11,010 nt of DNA. It comes from a virus (lineage: Duplodnaviria; Heunggongvirae; Uroviricota; Caudoviricetes). The position numbers and the translations under genes were made by a program. A model generated the notes under the pieces. The model had not been told where the DNA came from, searched no databases, and saw only the letters and a list, made by a program, of their open reading frames with translations. Below, in pieces: positions 2,096 through 11,010 of this stretch. The stretch covers positions 1 through 11,010 of the IMG/VR virus record IMGVR_UViG_2703718818_000014. One strand, written 5' to 3'. Position 1 is the stretch's first letter. Each line of letters begins with the position of its first letter.

Positions 2096-2275
2096 TTACC
2101 CTTTGGGTTCTATGCCGCGTTGCTGTAATTCTTTGCGGATTATTCGCTTTATCCAGGCAGCAAGAGAATCATCGCCGTCATGTTGTTGTGCCTTTTCCAT
2201 CTTTTCCCGTAAGTCAGGATCTAAACGGAACTGGAACGGAGGATTACCACGCCTTTCGTTTTTGTGTGTTGACAC
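2096..2275 (-). CDS. Small ribbon-helix-helix (Arc/MetJ-like) DNA-binding protein, paralogue 1 (59 aa, GTG start)
   Basis: My minus-strand translation: MSTHKNERRGNPPFQFRLDPDLREKMEKAQQHDGDDSLAAWIKRIIRKELQQRGIEPKG. Beta-strand / helix A / helix B pattern typical of RHH repressors. Below the length cutoff of the supplied ORF track. Paralogous to the ORF at 2780..2971, sharing start context and the C-terminal RGIEPKG. Confidence 0.45.
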   Translation of the reverse strand: MSTHKNERRGNPPFQFRLDPDLREKMEKAQQHDGDDSLAAWIKRIIRKELQQRGIEPKG

Positions 2276-2343
2276 GTTAATTACACCCCATGTAATGTAT
2301 TTATGTGTAGTGACACATTACAGACAATCAACACAAAAAGCAA

Positions 2344-2374
2344 AGCCCGCTGGAGCTATGAACACCAACGGGCT
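2344..2374. other. Conserved stem-loop A (minus-strand intrinsic-terminator-like; alternatively part of a small regulatory RNA)
   Basis: AGCCCG-c-TGG / CCA-a-CGGGCT stem. On the minus strand the stem is followed by TTTGCTTTTTGTG. Flanks AAAAAGCAAAGCCC ... GGGCTTCTAACC are shared with stem-loop B at 3043-3075, with compensatory changes inside the stem. Confidence 0.4.
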
Positions 2375-2494
2375 TCTAACCAAACCATTAATTGAGGTAA
2401 CGATTATGGCTATAAAAGAGCATAGCTTACTCTTTATACACACACAAACGCCCCGGAAACGGAATAATCCGTTTCATAGTTCGGTTTTGTGCAC

Positions 2495-2722
2495 TCATCC
2501 TGGCGGTCGGTTTTTGCCGGATTTAAGCCGCCGTGGGTATTTATCGACAAAATCTTCAAGGGCAAATTTTTCTGGTGGCACTAAGCGCGGCGCTGGTGGT
2601 GGTATTTTTGTTCTGGTTAGTTCTTCCTCAAGTCTGGCGCAGGCTTCTGACTGCCTTTGCCGGATGATTTCATCATCTTGCGTTTGCGTGTCTTGTATTG
2701 GTGATAGTGTGTTGTTGGTCAT
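2495..2722 (-). CDS. Hypothetical protein (75 aa)
   Basis: ATG start with AGGG 9 nt upstream; hydrophilic non-repetitive sequence; lies downstream of RHH paralogue 2 on the same strand and upstream of the minus-strand terminator-like stem-loop A. No family recognised. Confidence 0.35.
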   Translation of the reverse strand: MTNNTLSPIQDTQTQDDEIIRQRQSEACARLEEELTRTKIPPPAPRLVPPEKFALEDFVDKYPRRLKSGKNRPPG

Positions 2723-2779
2723 GATACTGCCCTGTAAAGCAATGCGCCGGAGTACCTCACACCACGGCGCTGATAGTTT

Positions 2780-2971
2780 TTATCCTTTGGGTTCTATACC
2801 GCGCCGCTTTAGTTCAGTGCGCCCCAACTCTTTAAGCCAGTTGGCTAGGCTTATGCCGTCGCTCTGTGCTTCTTTATCGAATTGCTCTTTTAGCTCTGGA
2901 GAAATTCGCATTCTGAATTGTGGGGATTGCCCGTCCCCTTTAGGGCTTTTATCGCGTTTGATTGTTGACAA
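2780..2971 (-). CDS. Small ribbon-helix-helix (Arc/MetJ-like) DNA-binding protein, paralogue 2 (63 aa from TTG 2971; alternative ATG at 2911 gives 43 aa)
   Basis: Translation ...STIKRDKSPKGDGQSPQFRMRISPELKEQFDKEAQSDGISLANWLKELGRTELKRRGIEPKG, collinear with paralogue 1 including N-terminal (M)ST.K. AGGTGA lies 4 nt upstream of the TTG. Confidence 0.45.
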   Translation of the reverse strand: MSTIKRDKSPKGDGQSPQFRMRISPELKEQFDKEAQSDGISLANWLKELGRTELKRRGIEPKG

Positions 2972-2972
2972 G

Positions 2973-3013
2973 TGGTCACCTATTGAATTAGCCTTTCTAT
3001 TGTTAGGTGACCA
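2973..3013. promoter_or_regulatory. 10-bp inverted repeat, candidate operator (TGGTCACCTA ... TAGGTGACCA)
   Basis: Perfect 10-bp inverted repeat at 2973-2982 and 3004-3013 between the RHH paralogue 2 start and stem-loop B. The analogous position in module A has a different inverted repeat (TGTAATGT 2291-2298 / ACATTACA 2315-2322). Confidence 0.35.
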
Positions 3014-3042
3014 CCTTAACACAAGAGCACTTAAAAAAGCAA

Positions 3043-3075
3043 AGCCCCGCAAGTGTCATTACCACTCGCAGGGCT
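3043..3075. other. Conserved stem-loop B (paralogue of stem-loop A)
   Basis: AGCCC-c-GCAAGTG / CACTCGC-a-GGGCT. Same flanking sequence as stem-loop A; on the minus strand followed by TTTGCTTTTTT. Confidence 0.4.
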
Positions 3076-3105
3076 TCTAACCAACAACGTAAACTAGGAG
3101 CCGTT

Positions 3106-3663
3106 ATGGTTGCTGTAAATCATATACCACACCTTGTACACACACAAACGGCCTTTGTGTGGCGTTTTCTGGCCCTGAATATCGGAGAAAAAAACCAGTT
3201 GATCGCCAGTGTCGAAAATAGCTATGATTCCCGCGCACCTCATAAAACGGGTGCCGGGATTGGCGTCCTGGGCAAAACTGAAGCGCATAACACGCGCCCC
3301 GCGTGTTTTTTTGTGCCGCATAGTCACACCTTATCAATGGTGGGCTGTACGGGGGCGGAGCAATCCGCGCCGGTTTCTTCAGTGTCCGGTTACGCCAACC
3401 CTGTACAGTCCGCCACCAGCGAAATTGGCGTTTCCGGTGGCGGTTATCTTAACCACACTGAGGAGGCTGCCAACATGGCTACTATCCCTACCCTTGTACA
3501 TTCTCAAACCGCCTTTCTCTGGCGCTTTATCATCTTTGGCGCGTCAGAACATCAAATCATCCACGTAACCGCCTGGACGGAACGCGAAGCGCGTAACCGT
3601 TGCCCGTCAGGTTGTGTTGCTGTATTTGCCGCTCGTATTCGTCAGGGGTCACATCATGCGTAA
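3106..3663 (+). CDS. Tandem small-protein paralogue units B1 and B2 in one open frame (possible Icd-like proteins); B2 may initiate independently at 3475
   Basis: ATG 3106 with AGGAG 5 nt upstream. An internal ATG at 3475 has GAGGAGG 9 nt upstream and encodes MATIPTLVHSQTAFLWRFIIFGASEHQIIHVTAWTEREARNRCPSGCVAVFAARIRQG. B1 begins MVAVNHIPHLVHTQTAFVWRF..., and the frame stays open from 3106 to 3663 across an internal terminator-like hairpin. Family assignment is from memory of the motif only. Confidence 0.4.
   Translation: MVAVNHIPHLVHTQTAFVWRFLALNIGEKNQLIASVENSYDSRAPHKTGAGIGVLGKTEAHNTRPACFFVPHSHTLSMVGCTGAEQSAPVSSVSGYANPVQSATSEIGVSGGGYLNHTEEAANMATIPTLVHSQTAFLWRFIIFGASEHQIIHVTAWTEREARNRCPSGCVAVFAARIRQGSHHA
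3289..3312 (+). terminator. Intrinsic terminator / attenuator inside the B1-B2 leader
   Basis: Stem AACACGCG / CGCGTGTT with a short loop, followed by a T run (GTTTTTTTG). Confidence 0.5.
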
Positions 3664-3949
3664 AAACCGCTTGCAAAAAATTATCACGGGGCTGTATGCT
3701 TCCCCCGTCGCCCACATGGCGACCGGGTTTGACAGCCTGAATAAATTGGCGGACAGCCGCCCATATCCGATAAGCGGTTTTTTTGTGTCCGTAAACCTAC
3801 CCATACCCGCATTATGGCGGGGCGTAACGGGGGAGCCTTTGCGCTCGCTGGTTTCCCAATTTGCCAGTCTGTCAACCCTGTTACGTCTCGCCACCATGTT
3901 TGACAGCGTAGTAGCGAGACTCCTTAACATTAAATTGGGAGCCTTTCAC

Positions 3950-4123
3950 ATGGCTGTATCCGCACGCCCTTACTTTGTCTGGCGCTTTATGCAGTGCCAC
4001 CACAGCAACATTGATGTATTCACCGTTACCGCAGCCACTGAACGCGAAGCCCGCGCCCAGCTGCCGCACGCACATCTGATTCTTGTCGCCCGTATTCGTC
4101 AGGGGAAAACCTATGCACAATAA
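3950..4123 (+). CDS. Small-protein paralogue unit B3 (57 aa; possible Icd-like); frame is open upstream to ATG 3656
   Basis: ATG 3950 with GGGAG 8 nt upstream; MAVSARPYFVWRFMQCHHSNIDVFTVTAATEREARAQLPHAHLILVARIRQGKTYAQ shares F.WRF, TEREAR and ARIRQG with unit B2. The upstream in-frame extension (3656-3949) is homologous to the B1-B2 leader at nucleotide level but in a different reading frame, which argues it is non-coding. Confidence 0.45.
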   Translation: MAVSARPYFVWRFMQCHHSNIDVFTVTAATEREARAQLPHAHLILVARIRQGKTYAQ

Positions 4124-4373
4124 AACCACACCGGACGCAGCAGCCGCCGCGCTCACTACGCTGATGCATGCGCTGATTGATATTTCTGTTATTGCTGACA
4201 GGGCGCATAAGCACGCCACCAGTGAAACAGAATATGCTGGGGCTTTCGTTCCTCATTCGCTGGCGGTTATGCAACTTAGTGCGGATATGGCGCTGAATGA
4301 GGCCAAAGCCATCCTGATTGCTGATTGTGAAAATGGGGGGGGGTTATGCGTGATGATCGTTTTAATTCCCTGA
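4113..4373 (+). CDS. Hypothetical small protein (86 aa)
   Basis: First ATG of the frame, overlapping the stop of unit B3; first gene of a tightly packed run of small ORFs leading into the primase gene. Contains a G9 homopolymer near its 3' end. Confidence 0.4.
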   Translation: MHNKTTPDAAAAALTTLMHALIDISVIADRAHKHATSETEYAGAFVPHSLAVMQLSADMALNEAKAILIADCENGGGLCVMIVLIP

Positions 4374-4807: not shown

Positions 4808-5107
4808 ATGAAACTTAAATATTCTGGCTTAACTGCCAGTGGCAACACTCACCCTAAATTTACGCGCGGTGATATTTACCGCGACCAGTACGGCGGCACG
4901 GTAATGATTAAGGGCGTGGAAGAACGGCGTGTAACCTACCGCCGTGAAGGTTACGAATATGATTGCGTGATGCCTGTTTATCAGTTCCGGCGTGATTTTT
5001 CTCTGGTACAGACCGCGCCGCATAACGTGCCCACCAGCAACGCCAGGGCACGGGCAAACATCCAGAAGCTGAAAACCATGATTAACGGATTCAGGGGTAA
5101 AAAATGA
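4808..5107 (+). CDS. Hypothetical small protein (99 aa), translationally coupled to the primase gene
   Basis: ATG 4808 with GGAGA upstream; its stop overlaps the primase start in an ATGA arrangement. Resembles from memory small conserved proteins found beside primase genes in P4-like islands (unverified). Confidence 0.5.
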   Translation: MKLKYSGLTASGNTHPKFTRGDIYRDQYGGTVMIKGVEERRVTYRREGYEYDCVMPVYQFRRDFSLVQTAPHNVPTSNARARANIQKLKTMINGFRGKK

Positions 5108-6858
5108 AACTGGCACCGAACGTAAAACAGCAGTCACGCGGCATAAAACACAAAGGAACAGAAGTCATTATTTTTGCGGGTAGTGATGCCTGGGCACACG
5201 CGAAACAATGGCAGGAACATGATGCGCGTATGGCCGGAGATAATGAGCCTCCTGTGTGGCTTGGGGAGCAGCAGTTATCAGAGCTGGATAAGCTGCAAAT
5301 TGTGCCGGAAGGCAGAAAATCCGTGCGCATATTCAGGGCCGGATATCTTGCGCCAGTAATGATAAAGGCGATTGGCCAGAAGCTGGCGGCGGCAGGCGTA
5401 CAGGATGCAAATTTTTACCCTGATGGTATGCACGGTCAGAAGGTGGAGAACTGGCGCGAATATCTGGCCCGTGAGCGCCAGAATCTTTCTGATGGTCTGG
5501 TCATTGAGCTTCCGGTAAAGCAAAAGGCGCAACTTTCGCAGATGGCGGACAGTGAGCGCGCGCAGCTGCTTGCCGATCGCTTTGATGGCGTTTGCGTACA
5601 TCCTGAAAGTGAAATCGTTCACGTATGGCGCGGCGGGGTATGGTGTCCGGTCAGCACAATGGAGCTTAGCCGCGAAATGGTGGCGATCTATTCAGAGCAC
5701 AGGGCCACTTTCAGCAAGCGCGTAATCAATAACGCCGTGGAAGCGTTAAAAGTTATTGCCGAACCAATGGGCGAGCCGTCCGGCGATTTGCTGCCGTTCG
5801 CCAATGGTGCGCTTGACCTGAAAACGGGGGAATTTTCCCCGCACACGCCGGAGAACTGGATCACCACGCACAACGGCATTGAGTACACGCCACCAGCACC
5901 AGGGGAGAACATCCGCGATAACGCGCCAAACTTTCATAAATGGCTTGAGCACGCAGCCGGAAAAGACCCGCGCAAGATGATGCGTATATGTGCCGCGCTG
6001 TACATGATTATGGCGAACCGGTACGACTGGCAGATGTTTATTGAGGCCACCGGAGACGGCGGGAGCGGTAAAAGTACATTCACGCACATAGCCAGCCTTC
6101 TGGCAGGGAAACAGAACACGGTAAGCGCTGAAATGACGTCGCTTGATGATGCTGGTGGACGTGCGCAGGTTGTCGGGAGTCGTCTTATCGTCCTGGCTGA
6201 CCAGCCGAAATATACAGGCGAAGGAACGGGCATCAAGAAAATCACGGGCGGTGACCCCGTGGAAATTAACCCGAAATACGAAAAGCGTTTCACGGCTGTA
6301 ATCAGGGCGGTGGTGCTGGCGACCAACAATAACCCGATGATATTCACCGAACGGGCCGGAGGTGTGGCACGTCGTCGCGTGATTTTCCGTTTCGACAATA
6401 TCGTCAGTGAGGCCGAAAAAGACAGGGAGCTACCGGAAAAGATTGCGGCTGAAATCCCTGTCATTATCCGCCGATTGCTGGCGAACTTTACCGACCCTGA
6501 GAAGGCACGGGCTTTACTACTGGAACAGCGTGACGGTGATGAAGCACTGGCAATAAAGCAACAGACGGATCCGGTTATTGAGTTTTGCCAGTTCCTGAAT
6601 TTTCTGGAGGAAGCACGCGGCCTGATGATGGGCGGCGGTGGCGATTCAGTGAAGTACACGACCAGAAACAGCCTTTACCGCGTCTATCTGGCGTTTATGG
6701 CGTACGCAGGCAGGAGCAAACCGCTAAACGTAAATGACTTTGGCAAGGCTATGAAGCCAGCCGCGAAAGTTTACGGACATGAATATATTACGCGGAAAGT
6801 TAAAGGAGTAACGCAGACTAACGCAATAACAACAGACGATTGCGACGCGTTTTTATAA
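5104..6858 (+). CDS. Replication protein: P4-alpha-family primase/helicase C-terminal-type P-loop NTPase (SF3/D5-like), 584 aa
   Basis: Walker A GDGGSGKST, Walker B-like RLIVLADQP and SF3 motif C VVLATNNNP in the C-terminal half; sits directly upstream of an iteron array. Confidence 0.85.
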   Translation: MKLAPNVKQQSRGIKHKGTEVIIFAGSDAWAHAKQWQEHDARMAGDNEPPVWLGEQQLSELDKLQIVPEGRKSVRIFRAGYLAPVMIKAIGQKLAAAGVQDANFYPDGMHGQKVENWREYLARERQNLSDGLVIELPVKQKAQLSQMADSERAQLLADRFDGVCVHPESEIVHVWRGGVWCPVSTMELSREMVAIYSEHRATFSKRVINNAVEALKVIAEPMGEPSGDLLPFANGALDLKTGEFSPHTPENWITTHNGIEYTPPAPGENIRDNAPNFHKWLEHAAGKDPRKMMRICAALYMIMANRYDWQMFIEATGDGGSGKSTFTHIASLLAGKQNTVSAEMTSLDDAGGRAQVVGSRLIVLADQPKYTGEGTGIKKITGGDPVEINPKYEKRFTAVIRAVVLATNNNPMIFTERAGGVARRRVIFRFDNIVSEAEKDRELPEKIAAEIPVIIRRLLANFTDPEKARALLLEQRDGDEALAIKQQTDPVIEFCQFLNFLEEARGLMMGGGGDSVKYTTRNSLYRVYLAFMAYAGRSKPLNVNDFGKAMKPAAKVYGHEYITRKVKGVTQTNAITTDDCDAFL

Positions 6859-6869
6859 TTTGTTGCAAT

Positions 6870-7100
6870 GGCTGTCTACCCTGTCTACCTGAGTAAAGAA
6901 AAATACATTTAATTCAGTACATTAACTTGGGTAGACAGCCTTTTTTTACTGTCTACCTACTATCTACCCTCTCTACCTGATTTTACCTGAATCAGACAGG
7001 GAGGTAGATACGGGGTAGATAGTGGATAAAAGCACTCTACCCCACTGAAAGCCGCGCCATTACTGGCATGGTGGCCAGTAAGGTAGATAAGGTAGACAAG
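6870..7100. repeat. Iteron array / candidate origin of replication
   Basis: At least 11 copies of the core TCTACC / GGTAGA (mostly as octamers TGTCTACC or GGTAGACA / GGTAGATA) in both orientations: 6873-6880, 6882-6889, 6930-6937, 6950-6957, 6961-6968, 6971-6977, 7003-7010, 7014-7021, 7035-7041, 7082-7089, 7091-7098. Perfect 12-bp inverted repeat GGCTGTCTACCC (6870-6881) / GGGTAGACAGCC (6929-6940) flanks an AT-rich spacer; further inverted repeat TTACTGGC / GCCAGTAA at 7060-7081. Confidence 0.7.
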
Positions 7101-7146
7101 GGGAGGCACAACTCAAAACTTTTTAAACGAGGGGGTAAAAATAAAA

Positions 7147-7404
7147 ATGCGCACATCAGGAAAACTTAATAATCAGAAGAAGCAGCATAACCGCGCCATT
7201 GACCTTACAGAGCACTGGCTGAGAGTGGCGATAAAAATCATCGACCGCAACACGGGGGAAGGATACGCGAAAGCACATCCCGAACTGATAAGCGCATTCA
7301 TGACCACGACGGCGGCAAACTTTGCCACGCTGACAGAACGGGAGATTGCCGAAGCGGAACAGGTAACAACCATCAACGTTAAAACCGGAGAGGTGGAATC
7401 ATGA
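7147..7404 (+). CDS. Hypothetical protein (85 aa), translationally coupled to ssb
   Basis: ATG 7147 with GAGGGGG upstream; its stop overlaps the SSB start (ATGA). Confidence 0.5.
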   Translation: MRTSGKLNNQKKQHNRAIDLTEHWLRVAIKIIDRNTGEGYAKAHPELISAFMTTTAANFATLTEREIAEAEQVTTINVKTGEVES

Positions 7405-7811
7405 CAGCACAGATAGCAGCTTACGGGCGGCTGGTGGACGACCCGCAGGTAAAACAGACCAGCAAGGGCACACCAATGACGCTGGCACGTATGGCGGTAT
7501 CGTTGCCATGTAGTCAGGCGCAGGATGGGCAGGCTACGTTATGGCTATCGGTGATGGCATTTGGTAAGCAGGCCGACTTCCTGGCTAAACATCAAAAAGG
7601 CGACGTTGCCAGCGTATCCGGCACGATGCAGGTCAGCCAGTGGACCGGACAGAACGGGGAAATGCGGCAGGGTTATCAGGTTATTGCAGACAGCGTAATC
7701 AGTGCCCGTGCGGCACGTCCTGGCGGGAACAGACGCAAAACCACAGGCACACAGGGTAATCAGCCACCAGCGGGAGACGATGACCCCTACGGTGATGATA
7801 TTCCGTTCTGA
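7401..7811 (+). CDS. ssb: Single-stranded DNA-binding protein (SSB) homologue, 136 aa
   Basis: Strong Shine-Dalgarno GGAGAGGTGGA; OB-fold-like pattern (GRLVDDPQV ... FGKQADFLAKHQKGDVASVSGTMQVSQWTGQNGEMRQGYQVIADSV); C-terminus DDDPYGDDIPF matches the SSB acidic tail (DDDIPF). Confidence 0.8.
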   Translation: MTAQIAAYGRLVDDPQVKQTSKGTPMTLARMAVSLPCSQAQDGQATLWLSVMAFGKQADFLAKHQKGDVASVSGTMQVSQWTGQNGEMRQGYQVIADSVISARAARPGGNRRKTTGTQGNQPPAGDDDPYGDDIPF

Positions 7812-7819
7812 ACGCACAG

Positions 7820-7841
7820 GCCGGAGAAAATCCGGCTTTTT
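7820..7841 (+). terminator. Rho-independent terminator after ssb
   Basis: GCCGGA gaaaa TCCGGC followed by TTTTT; almost identical to the hairpin at 9731-9753. Confidence 0.75.
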
Positions 7842-7845
7842 GTAT

Positions 7846-7893
7846 CCAAAAAAAGCCCGATAAGTACAGGAGGAAGCTTATCGGGCTTTTGCT
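7846..7893. terminator. Bidirectional terminator-like hairpin
   Basis: 11-bp perfect stem AGCCCGATAAG / CTTATCGGGCT (7853-7863 / 7877-7887) flanked by an A7 run upstream and TTTTGCTT downstream. Confidence 0.65.
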
Positions 7894-7964: not shown

Positions 7965-8025
7965 TTGCACAAAATGCAATCATGATTATAATCACAACTG
8001 GATGAACATCCAGTTATGGTTTTTT
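7965..8025 (+). promoter_or_regulatory. Candidate promoter and leader hairpin of the capsid operon
   Basis: -35 TTGCAC (7965-7970), 16-bp spacer, perfect -10 TATAAT (7987-7992); directly downstream an 8-bp stem AACTGGAT / ATCCAGTT (7996-8015) followed by a T6 run (8020-8025). Confidence 0.3.
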
Positions 8026-8048
8026 AAGTCAAAGAGGAATTTCTGACT

Positions 8049-8255
8049 ATGGCTGAAGAGAAAAAAGGCGGTGTTTCGGTGTACATAAGCCCCGAAATCG
8101 TGGAGGTGCTCAAGCAGCGCCACAAAAAAAACTATGAGGCTGGCGTAGCGGCTGGACTGGATCCGCTGATGACGCCGGAGCCGTCGATAGGTTCACTTGT
8201 GCGCTCTTATTTACTTGCGGCGCTTGGGATGCATAAAAATTATGGGGGTGAATAA
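8049..8255 (+). CDS. Hypothetical protein (68 aa), first gene of the capsid operon
   Basis: ATG 8049 with AGAGGA upstream; its stop overlaps the capsid gene start (TAATG). No family recognised. Confidence 0.5.
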   Translation: MAEEKKGGVSVYISPEIVEVLKQRHKKNYEAGVAAGLDPLMTPEPSIGSLVRSYLLAALGMHKNYGGE

Positions 8256-9310
8256 TGACAGGCAAAGCAACGGCACTTAACACTAACCAGCTTTTCATGT
8301 ACCTGAATCGCGGGGATATTGCGGATTTTAAATTCAGCCCTCTGTTTACTACGCTGTTTTTCCCGAACGTGGCGACATTCAGCACGCAAAACATCATGCT
8401 GGACACCCTGGACATTGAAGAGGTTACGATGTCGGCGTTTTGTTCGCCTATGGTGGGTAGTCAGGTCCAGCGCGATAAAGGGTACGAAACCAGCACGATT
8501 AAACCTGGATACATGAAGCCGAAGCACGAAATCGATCCAACGAAAACCATCATGCGCATGGCCGGAGAAGATCCGGCACAGCTTAACGACCCTACCTATC
8601 GCCGTATGCGCCTGATTACTGGCAATATGCGCCGCCAGGTAAACGCCATAAAAGCGCGCGTGGAATGGCTGGCGGTAAATGCGGTAACGACCGGAAAAAA
8701 CATCATTGAGGGCGAAGGCATAGAACGCTATGAAATCGACTGGAAGATACCGGAAAAAAACATCATAGAGCAGGCCGACGGTAAAAAATGGTCTGAGCAG
8801 GATAAAGACATACACGACCCAATATATGACATTGAACTATACGCAGATCAGGCAGGTTGCCCCGCCAACGTCATGATTATGGGCGTTGATGTATGGCGCA
8901 TGTTACGCAGCTTTAAAAAATTCCGTGAACTGTACGATCTCTCCCGTGGTTCAGAATCCGCCGCAGAGCTGGCATGTAAAAACCTGGGCGAAGTGGTGAG
9001 CTTTAAAGGCTATCTTGGTGATCTGGCCCTTATCGTCTATTCCGGCAAATACACTGACAGCGACGGCACAGAAAAATATTTCCTTGAGCCTGATTTGCTG
9101 GTCCTGGGCAACACCAACAATAAAGGGCTGGTGGCCTATGGTGCGATTATGGAACAGGAAGCGGTAAGAACGGGCGCAACGCAAAACATGTTTTACCCGA
9201 AAAACTGGATTGAAGACGGCGATCCGGCGATTGAGTACGTGCAGACACACAGCGCACCGCAGCCTGTTCCGGCAGATATTCGAAAATTTGTTACCGTCAA
9301 AATTGGTTAA
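8255..9310 (+). CDS. Major capsid protein, phage lambda gpE family (351 aa)
   Basis: Collinear with lambda gpE as I remember it: FKFSPLFTTLFF vs FKFDPLFLRLFF; PGYMKPKHEIDPTKTIMR vs PGYVKPKHEVNPQMTLRR; DPTYRRMRLITGNMR vs DPAYRRRRIIMQNMR; C-terminal YPKNWIEDGDPAIEY vs YPKNWVTTGDPAREF. Length close to gpE (341 aa). Confidence 0.9.
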   Translation: MTGKATALNTNQLFMYLNRGDIADFKFSPLFTTLFFPNVATFSTQNIMLDTLDIEEVTMSAFCSPMVGSQVQRDKGYETSTIKPGYMKPKHEIDPTKTIMRMAGEDPAQLNDPTYRRMRLITGNMRRQVNAIKARVEWLAVNAVTTGKNIIEGEGIERYEIDWKIPEKNIIEQADGKKWSEQDKDIHDPIYDIELYADQAGCPANVMIMGVDVWRMLRSFKKFRELYDLSRGSESAAELACKNLGEVVSFKGYLGDLALIVYSGKYTDSDGTEKYFLEPDLLVLGNTNNKGLVAYGAIMEQEAVRTGATQNMFYPKNWIEDGDPAIEYVQTHSAPQPVPADIRKFVTVKIG

Positions 9311-9321
9311 CGGTGGATTCT

Positions 9322-9657
9322 ATGAACACTCCATACATTGAGTTATTTGCAGGCAGTCAGCAGGTATCAACGACACTGGTACATTTTGCCGCTGATGCTG
9401 GCGTTATTCAGGAATTTACCCCGCTGATGCTGGCGGACAATGGCGAGTTTAAGCCGTGGGATGGTCAGGAATCTGGCAAGGCTGTTTATCTGACCTCGTA
9501 CCCCGTTGACACGTCGACGCAGAAATCAGCACAGTGCTATAAGACGGGGATATTTAATATCGCCGCCGTTAACTGGCCTGAGAGCGTCGACACCGATGCG
9601 AAAAAATGCGCCGCCTTTGCGGGTTCTGGCGTATCCGTTCAGCCGCTGGCGCGATAA
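9322..9657 (+). CDS. Head decoration protein, phage lambda gpD family (about 111 aa; alternative GTG start at 9313)
   Basis: TPLMLADNGEFKPWDG vs lambda gpD TPLMLDTSSRKLVAWDG; YKTGIFNIAAVNWPESVDTDAKKCAAFAGSGVSV vs [35 protein letters not shown]. Sits immediately after the capsid gene. Confidence 0.85.
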   Translation: MNTPYIELFAGSQQVSTTLVHFAADAGVIQEFTPLMLADNGEFKPWDGQESGKAVYLTSYPVDTSTQKSAQCYKTGIFNIAAVNWPESVDTDAKKCAAFAGSGVSVQPLAR

Positions 9658-9730
9658 GCAGGGGGAACGATGGCAGAAAGCCGGGCGATGACGGCGACAT
9701 CGATCGCATACTGAAAACCATCTGAGACAG

Positions 9731-9753
9731 GCCGGAGAAATCCGGCTTTTTTT
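9731..9753 (+). terminator. Rho-independent terminator after the decoration gene
   Basis: GCCGGA gaaa TCCGGC followed by T7; same hairpin as 7820-7841. Confidence 0.75.
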
Positions 9754-9930
9754 ACGGGTCCTTTCCGGCATATGGACCCGTTACGGGGCGGCGACCTCGC
9801 GGTTTTTCGCTATTTATGAGCCTTTTCAGGGGGGTGGTGGTGGTTTTGTTGTTTGCTCTATCTTTATGAATGAAAAGGGAAAGATGCAAACAATACACCA
9901 ACCTGAAGCAGTAATTAAGTTGGTGTATTA
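9754..9930 (+). other. cos site 1: lambda-type cosQ-like/cosN region with a non-lambda cosB
   Basis: CCGTTACG-GGGCGGCGACCT-CGCGGTTTTTCGCTATTTATGA, with the 12-nt cohesive-end sequence at 9786-9797 matching lambda cosN and its right flank. Downstream there are no lambda R-sites; instead G6(TGG)3 at 9826-9840, inverted repeat TTGTTTGC / GCAAACAA, and 11-bp inverted repeat AATACACCAAC (9892-9902) / GTTGGTGTATT (9919-9929) abutting the terS start. Confidence 0.75.
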
Positions 9931-10473
9931 ATGAAATCGCACCTGATGAACAAAAAAAACATGGCGAAAAGCTGCCGTGTAAGTGCGACAGCGTTCGACA
10001 AGTGGGGAGTGACTCCCGTTGAACGTAAAGGCCGTGAGGCGTTTTATGATGTTGCCAGCGTGATAGACAATAGGGTTAACAATGCAATTAGCCAGCTTAC
10101 AAACGACAAAGGCGATATTGATGATGCTGAACTCTTACGAGTCAGGATCAGATTACTGACAGCACAGGCGGAGGCGCAGGAACTTAAAAACGAGCGCGAT
10201 CGCGGTGACGTGATTGATACTGAGTTTTGCCTGTACGCGCTTTCAAAGCTGGCGAGTCAGATTTCATCAATCATGGACAGCCTCCCGCTTAATATGCAAA
10301 GGAGCTTCCCACAGATTCCCCCCGCCATGCTGGACAGGCTTAAAAGGGAAGTGGTTAAAGCCTGTAATGGCAGTGCCAGAGTTGCCGACAACCTCCCACA
10401 GATACTGGCTGATTACTTGAAAGAAACAACCGGAAACGTACCGGAAAAGTTGCTACAGAAGAAAGGCGAGTAA
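9931..10473 (+). CDS. Terminase small subunit, lambda gpNu1 family (180 aa; homologous start may be ATG 9946)
   Basis: C-terminal two-thirds collinear with lambda Nu1: LTAQAEAQELKNERDRGDVIDTEFCLYALSKLASQISSIMDSLPLNMQRSFP vs LTRAQADAQELKNARDSAEVVETAFCTFVLSRIAGEIASILDGLPLSVQRRFP. The N-terminal DNA-binding region is recognisably related but far more divergent. No obvious Shine-Dalgarno at either start. Confidence 0.88.
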   Translation: MKSHLMNKKNMAKSCRVSATAFDKWGVTPVERKGREAFYDVASVIDNRVNNAISQLTNDKGDIDDAELLRVRIRLLTAQAEAQELKNERDRGDVIDTEFCLYALSKLASQISSIMDSLPLNMQRSFPQIPPAMLDRLKREVVKACNGSARVADNLPQILADYLKETTGNVPEKLLQKKGE

Positions 10474-10479
10474 CCGCAG

Positions 10480-10697
10480 CGCAATTATTGAACAAAACTG
10501 AGAAACGACATGAAAGCGTCATAAATCGCCATTTCAGATGATTACCGTGTCGTTTCTTTTTATTGTGTATCTATTTAAAAACAAATAGTTATGTTCGAGA
10601 AGTACCGACATGATTTTTCCAGAAAAATTTTCATAAACAGATAAAAACCGCGAGGTCGCCGCCCCGTAACGGGCCATAATTCCAGGAAGGACCCGAC
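10480..10697 (-). other. cos site 2 (inverted): lambda-type cosQ-like/cosN with lambda-like cosB (R3-, R2-, R1-like elements)
   Basis: Reverse complement of 10653-10664 is GGGCGGCGACCT. The minus strand reads CCCGTTACG-cosN-CGCGGTTTTT...TTTATGAAAATTTTT...TCGGTACTTCTCGAACATAACT...AAAAAGAAACGACACGG...CTGAAATGGCGA...CATGTCGTTTCTCAGTTTTGTTCAATAATTG, collinear with the lambda left end through R3, R2 and R1 up to where the Nu1 ATG would be. There it meets the 3' end of the plus-strand terS. Confidence 0.75.
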
Positions 10698-10728: not shown

Positions 10729-11010
10729 ATGACAGAAGCCGAACTACTGCGATTAATCCGTCGCGTTGCCGGAATCAGCCAGCAGGCTGACGAACAGGCC
10801 ACGCAGCCGGACAGCGTGACCGCCGAAAATTATGCGCGTGTGGTTGCTGAGGTGATGCGCCGTGACGGTATTGAGCTTAACGGCGTGGATATGCGCGACA
10901 TACGGATCCGCGTTCTGGAAATGCTGGCCTACAATCGCCGCGTTGAACTGTATCGGGAGAAAGAAAAAATTACGTACCACTGGAAGAAGCCGGAGCGGTT
11001 ACGGCGATAA
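10729..11010 (+). CDS. Hypothetical protein (93 aa)
   Basis: ATG 10729 with GGGGG upstream; stop is the last codon of the window. Arg-rich C-terminus; no family recognised. Confidence 0.5.
   Translation: MTEAELLRLIRRVAGISQQADEQATQPDSVTAENYARVVAEVMRRDGIELNGVDMRDIRIRVLEMLAYNRRVELYREKEKITYHWKKPERLRR

Follow-up and report, generated by a model that had tools for sequence, protein, structure and literature searches.

A conserved capsid and decoration gene pair in a probable classical phage-inducible chromosomal island of the yejM-luxR group

We analyzed a stretch of viral DNA of 11,010 nucleotides (nt) (IMG/VR record IMGVR_UViG_2703718818_000014; hereafter, the window) whose positions 8049–9657 encode homologs of the major capsid and decoration proteins of phage lambda. 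Our results indicate that the window is very probably the coding part of a classical phage-inducible chromosomal island of Gram-negative bacteria (GN-PICI; ‘Type A’) of the attachment site (att) group of EcCIATCC25922 and EcCIED1a.1, that positions 8049–9657 constitute its conserved late ‘capsid morphogenesis’ operon, and that the capsid and decoration proteins are not what carries the island. As part of this overall explanation, and with the same high confidence, we consider both proteins to be genuine homologs of HK97-fold shell and gpD-like decoration proteins that belong to an old, satellite-only clade and are maintained by selection. The element is an ordinary E. coli phage satellite, already catalogued together with its capsid, decoration and small terminase (TerS) genes; PICIs of the yejM-luxR group have been listed since 2018.

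Three intact genes had been recognized between positions 8049 and 9657 in the preliminary description of this sequence, and the table of open reading frames (ORFs) and the Pfam and PHROG searches support all three. The first gene, orf68 (8049–8255, + strand), encodes 68 amino acids (aa) and its stop codon overlaps the ATG of the capsid gene (TAATG). The second gene (8255–9310, + strand) encodes a 351-aa major capsid homolog of the lambda gpE family (HK97 fold), which is the ortholog of c1499 in the island EcCICFT073. This protein matched Phage_cap_E (PF03864) over nearly the whole profile (E = 2e-50; 172.2 bits relative to a cut-off of 22.9) as well as the major head protein family phrog_29 (2e-107), and it presents 43% identity to lambda gpE over 327 aa. 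It also matched two structures: PDB entry 3BQW, named ‘putative capsid protein of prophage’ and corresponding to the CFT073 ortholog (E = 1.4e-232), and lambda gpE (7VI9; E = 1.9e-81). The third gene (9322–9657, + strand) encodes a 111-aa head decoration homolog of the lambda gpD/phage 21 SHP family, orthologous to c1500, which matched HDPD (PF02924; 3.7e-18; 66.2 bits relative to a cut-off of 29.1) and PDB entry 1TD0 (E = 5.9e-14); the structures of phage 21 SHP and lambda gpD were both matched, and the identity to lambda gpD is 37%. The decoration ORF is open from a GTG at position 9313 (9313–9657), but the ATG at 9322, as annotated in relatives, is probably the actual start. With matches above the curated cut-offs, over most of the profile, for these two proteins and for TerS, the full-length gpE-, gpD- and Nu1-family genes in non-lambda order that had been described are all present. 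One relative with 55% identity encodes a predicted 463-aa protein (P0030) in which Phage_cap_E and HDPD are found together; this apparent fusion, or sequencing frameshift, is consistent with the E-then-D order of the lineage.

Over its whole length, the window is 99.99% identical to three loci of our comparison (L010, L011 and L015; loci are numbered L throughout). In these loci the island is flanked by tRNA-Pro(ggg) downstream of yejM on one side and by yejO/narP on the other. The att repeats (TTTTAGTTATACGTTT) are 11,732 bp apart (1659–13406 in L011) and match those of the ‘yejM-luxR’ att group listed by Fillol-Salom et al. (2018; their Table S1), which includes EcCIATCC25922 and EcCIED1a.1, among others. 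Because only ~0.6 kb of non-coding DNA lies between the last gene (orf93) and the end of the island, the window represents the whole coding part of the element. Many assemblies on record encode a capsid protein identical to that of the window; a scan of genome contigs with this protein confirmed no locus. Each of the sequence features that characterize PICIs was found: a left-end integrase with an att site that is specific to the family and that prophages do not use, an alpA-type regulator in the same orientation as int, a primase–replicase module followed by an iteron origin, a capsid homolog downstream of this origin (8255–9310), a Nu1-family TerS along with two lambda cosN sites (where a TerS homolog or Rpp and/or a helper-type cos is expected) and a size of 11,732 bp from att to att (~10–15 kb being expected). 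PICIs are further characterized by helper-phage induction and transfer at high frequency in phage particles, which have been shown for EcCICFT073 only. SatelliteFinder uses five core components to define PICIs (integrase, the regulator alpA, primase–replicase, capsid morphogenesis and small terminase); it detected 375 ‘Type A’ PICIs possessing all five components, and E. coli accounts for 97% of these elements (PMC10085698). A capsid gene is found in 21 of the 29 reference GN-PICIs of Mageeney et al. (PMC10111431). The combination of E-like, D-like and TerS genes, which had been highlighted as minimal and worth characterizing, is therefore not special: it matches the ‘Type A’ definition (PMC10085698) and the same genes are present in EcCIATCC25922. 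The suspicion that the category might not be new was justified, as this is a known and catalogued PICI family.

The closest described relatives are EcCIATCC25922/EcCIED1a.1 and the island of Nissle 1917, which share the att site and integrase type of the window. EcCIATCC25922, which encodes the same proteins as the Nissle 1917 island without any difference in sequence, presents the same order as the window: int, alpA, immunity zone, primase, origin (ori), the gene for the single-stranded DNA-binding protein (SSB), orf68, capsid, decoration, cos, TerS, inverted cos and orf93. Its capsid, decoration and TerS proteins are, respectively, 94.6%, 97.3% and 97.8% identical to those of the window. In contrast to the window, EcCIATCC25922 keeps a 137-aa Nu3-like ORF after the decoration gene; it also carries another orf68 allele (70% aa identity), and the immunity zone (2100–4290) is mosaic between the two. 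EcCICFT073 presents the same architecture, with capsid (c1499) and decoration (c1500) proteins 96.3% and 96.4% identical to those of the window, and likewise contains two inverted lambda-type cosN sites and orf93. It differs from the window by its integrase and att site (roxA-phoQ), by the presence of RppA (c1503; 144 aa) instead of TerS, and by PerC and an intact 137-aa gene. Two other regions of CFT073 that we examined are lambdoid prophages; the EcCICFT073 island lies in a third region.

We considered three other classes for this element and rejected each of them. A lambdoid prophage or remnant was rejected based on the order orf68-E-D-cos-Nu1 and on the chromosomal genes at both flanks of the island. 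Lambda Nu1, D and E belong to the same Pfam families as the proteins of the window (full-length alignments at 35%, 37% and 43% identity) and cosN is identical, but the lambda order is cos-Nu1-A-W-B-C-Nu3-D-E, whereas the window presents E-D-cos-Nu1, a divergent cosB and no A, W, B or C. We detected no portal, protease, large terminase (TerL) or tail gene in the window or beyond it, through the flanks of L010, L011 and L015, and neither the ORFs nor the Pfam matches of the island and its flanks include a tail, lysis, portal, connector or TerL gene. This agrees with the earlier observation that the window lacks portal, protease/scaffold, TerL and tail genes. The adjacent sequence, which had been expected to be decisive, contains no head or tail module and consists of the yejM/tRNA-Pro and yejO/narP regions. 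The proposal of a helper-dependent satellite rather than a fragment of a lambdoid prophage is supported.

Membership in the P4-like satellites was the second class that we rejected, based on the lack of any candidate ORF for Sid, Psu or delta, on the lambda-type cos and on the presence of capsid-family genes. The core of P4-like elements includes the hijacking genes Sid, Psu and Delta. Beyond int, primase, capsid and TerS, we found no credible + strand ORF matching Sid (~244 aa) or Psu (~190 aa) in size; the search included no profile for Sid, Psu or Delta, the longer + strand ORFs overlapping the immunity zone were not scanned singly, and those that were scanned matched only PHROGs of unknown function. 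P4 shares with the window an alpha-type primase–helicase, AlpA and a C4/CI-type RNA immunity, but P4 has a P2-type cos where the window has lambda-type sites, and capsid-family genes are found only in the window. The chassis had been described as P4-type: its integrase, AlpA-like helix-turn-helix (HTH) regulator and D5/P4-type primase–helicase were all recovered, but the chassis is of the PICI type. Finally, the island is not a capsid-forming PICI (cf-PICI), as portal, protease, connectors, HNH and TerL were not found up to the att sites. EcCIEDL933, a cf-PICI, has an int, alpA and rep chassis related to that of the window and both encode capsid and TerS proteins, but the head and packaging genes of cf-PICIs form a complete set, with protease, portal, head–tail connectors, HNH and TerL, none of which is present in the window. 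The cf-PICIs make their own small capsids, and the phylogenies of capsid and TerS proteins separate PICIs from cf-PICIs almost perfectly (PMC10085698).

We further analyzed the conservation of the capsid and decoration genes. Both were intact and of equal length in 7/7 compared island copies, and both are under strong purifying selection, with a ratio of nonsynonymous to synonymous divergence (dN/dS) of ~0.1 and no decay. Pairwise dN/dS ranged from 0.02 to 0.15 for the capsid gene (seven copies; synonymous divergence up to 0.30) and from 0.04 to 0.18 for the decoration gene (synonymous divergence up to 0.19), with the exception of one low-divergence pair (0.30). These values are comparable to those of the integrase (0.06–0.11) and close to those of the primase (0.03–0.08). 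The genes are therefore not pseudogenes, which had been raised as a possibility. The whole three-gene module was found at 91% nucleotide identity or higher in 598 of 5,426 complete E. coli genomes (~11%), O157:H7 included. Among 50,697 phage records, the best capsid match presented 47% identity. Capsid homologs grade from 95% to 54% identity in Escherichia, Salmonella, Edwardsiella, Lelliottia, Serratia and Cedecea, and all the contexts that we examined (55%–100% identity) were PICI-type islands with the order E, D, variable slot, and Nu1 or Rpp. The module is conserved in the islands of Escherichia and Salmonella, and the capsids of Edwardsiella and Serratia present 54–64% identity. Judging from these contexts, the capsid clade is found only in satellites. 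Satellite-only contexts without any phage capsid above 47% identity argue for a long residence in satellites and not for a recent capture from a helper.

These data also bear on the possibility that the module is a decaying head fragment of a lambdoid prophage without a function of its own. One gene of the late operon has been deleted and published deletions of the capsid genes gave no phenotype, as would be expected of such a fragment. However, the E-D-cos-Nu1 order is not that of lambda, none of the seven copies is disrupted or differs in length, dN/dS is ~0.1, the module is conserved across Escherichia and Salmonella with capsid homologs in Edwardsiella and Serratia, and the island possesses precise att sites and a complete PICI chassis. 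Based on the selection and conservation data, a functionless remnant can be practically excluded.

The capsid and decoration genes of EcCICFT073 have been studied experimentally, with the CFT073 prophage, lambda and phi80 as the only phages used. Neither the transfer of the island nor its block of lambda plaques was affected by deleting c1499 or c1500; transfer was also good with a c1499::cat replacement, and according to the authors no phenotype was found for c1499 (PMC6092414). With lambda, the packaged DNA was all phage-sized, ‘ruling out’ size redirection (PMC6092414). Because c1499 and c1500 are dispensable and the packaged DNA is phage-sized, the capsid-forming strategy with a possibly altered capsid size, which the preliminary description had put forward, is not supported; the window also falls outside the cf-PICI definition. 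The proposal holds that the island supplies its own shell (the E-like and D-like proteins) and relies on the helper for portal, protease/scaffold, TerL and tails, producing satellite-specific and possibly smaller capsids. Several observations are compatible with it: the genes are intact, strongly constrained and members of a satellite-only clade, relatives add a gene with a scaffold-like match to the C-terminal part of Nu3/gpC, and the island has its own TerS and cos. Moreover, the experimentally characterized E. coli PICIs do not include TerS-type islands of the yejM-luxR group (PMC11773190), and precedents exist in SaPIbov5, whose capsid homolog Ccm redirects assembly to small capsids, and in PmCI172, which makes small capsids and encodes a capsid homolog (PMC6092414). 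Like the window, both are cos-packaged islands bearing an HK97-fold capsid homolog; unlike Ccm, however, c1499 showed no size redirection or other phenotype (PMC6092414). The results of the EcCICFT073 deletions, the phage-sized DNA, and the absence of the portal, protease, connector and TerL genes that define cf-PICIs all speak against a shell of its own. The length of the island points in the same direction: four copies (4 × 11.73 kb) amount to 46.9 kb, ~97% of the lambda genome, and an island of a quarter of this genome therefore fits packaging as tetramers in full-size heads, given the known packaging limits of lambda. In addition, the scaffold-like gene is deleted in the lineage of the window, yet this lineage is widespread. 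We consider it unlikely that the island builds its own shell.

The operon consists of three genes in the window, as had been described, but of four genes in relatives, the fourth (137 aa; c1501 homolog) being deleted here. Alignment to L006, L001 and L005 revealed a 358-bp out-of-frame deletion, which left a scar with a 14-codon remnant (9667–9714, + strand) and whose junction lies at a 9-bp direct repeat, ACGATGGCA. The same scar (around position 11412) was found in all six loci with the identical capsid protein (L010–L015), and it spans three backbones: chromosomal islands with TerS, chromosomal islands without TerS, and helper-embedded islands (L012 and L013). The intact gene is located at positions 16991–17404 of L001, and homologs are present in L005, L006, L007, L008 and L016. 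The 137-aa ORF of these relatives matched the C-terminal part of phrog_53, annotated as ‘head maturation protease’ (2.7e-9), and aligned weakly to the C-terminus of lambda Nu3 (E = 0.06), which suggests that it is probably a scaffold-type protein with a capsid-binding domain; a PDB sequence search with this ORF returned no significant match. One RefSeq record names it ‘head-tail connector’. The ‘minimal’ appearance of the E, D and TerS combination thus results from the 358-bp deletion that removed this Nu3-like fourth gene. Since the gene was secondarily lost in a successful lineage, a shell-building role is not favored.

Alternatively, the two proteins could act as interference or defense factors that poison head assembly, either in the helper or in competing lambdoid phages that are not helpers. 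Interference is a conserved trait of PICIs, Ccm provides a precedent, and selection is strong despite the lack of a transfer phenotype. Nevertheless, lambda plaques were not restored by deleting c1499 or c1500, and when the post-ori genes of EcCICFT073 were expressed singly, a block of lambda or phi80 was seen only with c1503 (RppA). The late-module proteins matched no family in NCBIfam or PADLOC, and a known defense system is therefore not supported. An interference role is, in our view, improbable.

It is also conceivable that the module serves as a spare copy of helper head genes for islands with a helper-embedded lifestyle, that is, islands located inside the head genes of their helper. 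Helper-embedded PICIs (HE-PICIs) of the 11capE type (Mageeney et al. 2023) present the same replication and late modules as the window, but they possess an integrase of another clade and are located in helper late genes, whereas the island of the window is chromosomal and lies beside tRNA-Pro. In L012 and L013, islands with the same late module are located between gpW and gpC of a lambdoid prophage, with the portal gene as apparent target, and in L021 a 55%-identical variant island lies inside gene E of a lambdoid prophage. The capsid protein of the L012 and L013 islands is identical to that of the window and they share its deletion scar. These locations are those expected under a backup role, which was proposed in PMC10111431, although the same study notes that the redundancy is not essential. 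However, chromosomal islands such as the one in the window have kept the pair, no portal gene is found in islands that are inserted in the portal, and the island capsid is only 43–47% identical to lambdoid gpE, which makes its substitution for helper gpE doubtful. Such a backup function is very unlikely.

With respect to packaging, the window encodes a full-length TerS of the Nu1 family (9931–10473, + strand; 180 aa). This protein matched Phage_Nu1 (PF07471; 9e-23; 81.1 bits relative to a cut-off of 30) and phrog_57 (1.6e-51), and it presents 35% identity end to end to lambda Nu1 and 46% to gp1 of N15; relative to lambda Nu1, identity is 26% in the DNA-binding domain and 51% in the central region. 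A PDB sequence search with TerS yielded no significant match. As had been described, a cos site lies between the decoration and Nu1-like genes: cos1 (9755–9826, + strand) contains the exact lambda cosN 12-mer (9786–9797), which lies upstream of terS and is oriented as in lambda. The match to lambda extends over ~40 nt around cosN, beyond which cosB diverges. A second cos had been overlooked: cos2 (10624–10695, − strand) contains another exact cosN in inverted orientation (10653–10664), and its 72-nt arm is 82% complementary to cos1. Two cosN sites were found in all the E. coli relatives examined and were also reported for EcCICFT073 (PMC6092414). In the phage database, nucleotide matches to phages were confined to the two cos regions. 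The slot between the inverted arms is occupied by TerS (180 aa) in the window and by RppA (144 aa) in EcCICFT073, and it contains no credible ORF in L014, which possesses neither TerS nor Rpp. RppA and the island TerS showed no similarity by BLASTP. The inverted cos arms may be recombination points for the swapping of packaging-specificity cassettes, and the alternation of TerS and Rpp in a single cos-flanked slot bears on the question of the origin of Rpp raised in PMC6739421.

We also examined the signals surrounding the capsid operon. Upstream, a terminator scan identified a hairpin with a T-run after the SSB gene (7818–7838, + strand), and a second terminator read from the sequence (GCCCGATAAG...CTTATCGGGC followed by TTTT; 7855–7891, + strand) is conserved in relatives. 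These hairpins (7818–7891) would insulate the late module from the replication genes, making the capsid operon an insulated late unit. Downstream, the scan identified the terminator of the operon (9729–9748, + strand; hairpin and T-run), which is conserved in relatives and located after their 137-aa gene. The hairpins at 7818–7838 and 9729–9748 are nearly identical, AGGCCGGAGAAA(A)TCCGGCTT with a T-run. The claim that the operon has its own terminator thus holds, but its own promoter is less clear: a consensus promoter scan of the + strand found none, and the candidate is a region with a weak −35 and an invariant TATAAT. This promoter-like region (7965–8026, + strand) consists of TTGCAC, 16 nt and TATAAT (7987–7992), which precede an invariant palindrome at 7998–8013, CTGGATGAACATCCAG, and a T-run. 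The region is invariant or nearly so in eight islands with variable flanks, and the putative promoter escaped the consensus scan because its −35 matches at only 3/6 positions. The capsid operon may be transcribed from its own promoter at 7965–7992. The palindrome CTGGATGAACATCCAG overlaps the expected transcription start, and together with the T-run it could represent an operator or a barrier to read-through.

The first gene of the operon, orf68, belongs to phrog_3255 (function unknown), and searches against Pfam, NCBIfam and PADLOC yielded no match. A single-sequence AlphaFold2 model predicts two helices (pLDDT 74.5), and Foldseek found nothing significant for this model in PDB (top match: the DNA-binding domain of TraM; E = 1.8). 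Based on its sequence pattern, we retain as a weak idea that orf68 could be a ribbon-helix-helix regulator. Two allele groups of orf68 exist, which are 67–70% identical to each other at the aa level, whereas the adjacent and translationally coupled capsid gene is 93–99% identical across the same islands. This difference points to a recombination breakpoint at the boundary of orf68 and the capsid gene.

Several steps of the cycle that we propose have been shown for this family. A lambdoid helper would trigger alpA-dependent induction (shown for the family; PMC6092414), after which the island would be excised by Int and replicated from its iteron origin by its own primase–helicase (both shown for the family). 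By homology, the island TerS would then read the island-specific cosB beside the lambda-identical cosN and recruit the TerL of the helper, so that island concatemers would be cut and packed. Packaging would take place in full-size heads built by the helper, with helper tails completing the particle, as shown for EcCICFT073. For the capsid and decoration pair, our best guess is that these proteins most likely represent a conditional accessory, which would co-assemble with the head proteins of particular helpers.

Several points weigh against the interpretation that we favor, namely that of a classical PICI packaged in helper heads. Strong purifying selection is hard to square with the ‘no phenotype’ reported for deletions of the capsid and decoration genes. 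The E. coli PICIs counted as experimentally characterized up to January 2025 were only EcCICFT073 and EcCIEDL933 (PMC11773190), and in the literature up to the same date we found no experiment on a TerS-type island of the yejM-luxR att group. The steps linking TerS, cosB and TerL are drawn from homology, and the assignment of the promoter is weak. Moreover, identity to lambda is only 29% at the C-terminal end of TerS, the region with which lambda Nu1 binds gpA. A comparison of the TerS C-terminus with those of lambda or helper Nu1 proteins, made to detect any special conservation, gave only 29–34% identity. There is a small chance that the TerS-type islands of this group differ from the Rpp-type EcCICFT073 and that the capsid and decoration pair builds or remodels heads with natural phage 21/lambda-like cos helpers. 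If this were true, the heads would be chimeric, or smaller shells assembled on the portal, protease and scaffold of the helper. This would represent a minimal shell-supplying strategy, intermediate between classical PICIs and cf-PICIs, and would account for the strong purifying selection despite the lack of a laboratory phenotype.

The remaining genes of the window conform to the classical PICI. The tyrosine integrase (1–1242, + strand; 413 aa; Arm-DNA-bind_3, Phage_int_M and Phage_integrase) belongs to the yejM/tRNA-Pro att group and is 95–98% identical at the aa level to the integrases of Nissle/ATCC 25922-type islands. It is followed by a 68-aa AlpA-like HTH regulator (1739–1945, + strand), whose match to Phage_AlpA (E = 0.003) lies below the curated cut-off; the homologous 68-aa gene of L018 has a precomputed PF05930 match. 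AlpA is needed for the induction of PICIs (PMC6092414). An RNA immunity region of the P4 type (3235–3898, + strand) was identified from gathering-level Rfam matches: isrK (3235–3311), C4 (3333–3420 and 3810–3898) and a c4-a1b1 target (3694–3743). This region corresponds to the zone of ‘immunity repressor RNAs’ described in PMC10111431 and presents a duplicated immunity unit of the P4/P1 type interleaved with three Icd-like repeats on the + strand. Two paralogous small ORFs (2096–2275 and 2780–3052, both on the − strand) end in ...ELxxRGIEPKG and are YlcI/YnfO-like, one of them with a weak HicB match. Both face the Icd-like genes from the other strand, within the mosaic immunity zone, where conservation among relatives is the lowest of the whole window.

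The P4-alpha/D5-type primase–helicase (5104–6858, + strand; 584 aa; D5_N, DUF5906 and Pox_D5) is 99% identical at the aa level to the primases of EcCICFT073 and of the Nissle island. The iteron-type origin that had been described was recovered directly downstream (6867–7101), with TGTCTACC/GGTAGAYA repeats in both orientations (families D1–D3 and D6; inverted pairs I1–I13), in line with PICI origins mapped directly after the primase gene (PMC6092414). Next come an 85-aa ORF (phrog_1231, function unknown) and the SSB (136 aa; identified by PHROG and Pfam), which together span positions 7147–7811 (+ strand). The last gene of the island, orf93 (10729–11010, + strand), belongs to phrog_1561 (function unknown) and is present in all relatives; a PDB sequence search with its product yielded no significant match.

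These results carry little weight as a discovery, as a capsid gene is one of the five published core components of PICIs and the ortholog has a crystal structure (3BQW). What our analysis adds is the satellite-only clade, the dN/dS of ~0.1, the count of 598 in 5,426 genomes and the 358-bp deletion of the fourth gene. The satellite-restricted clade, the loss of the Nu3-like gene and the alternation of TerS and Rpp leave the classification of the island unchanged. The finding presents a puzzle for the biology of these islands, since a satellite-only capsid and decoration pair is kept in ~11% of complete E. coli genomes, among them those of O157:H7, Nissle 1917 and CFT073, yet functional tests have revealed no phenotype. 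This puzzle is narrowed by the restriction of the capsid clade to satellites, by the natural loss of the Nu3-like gene and by the alternation of TerS and Rpp between inverted cos sites.

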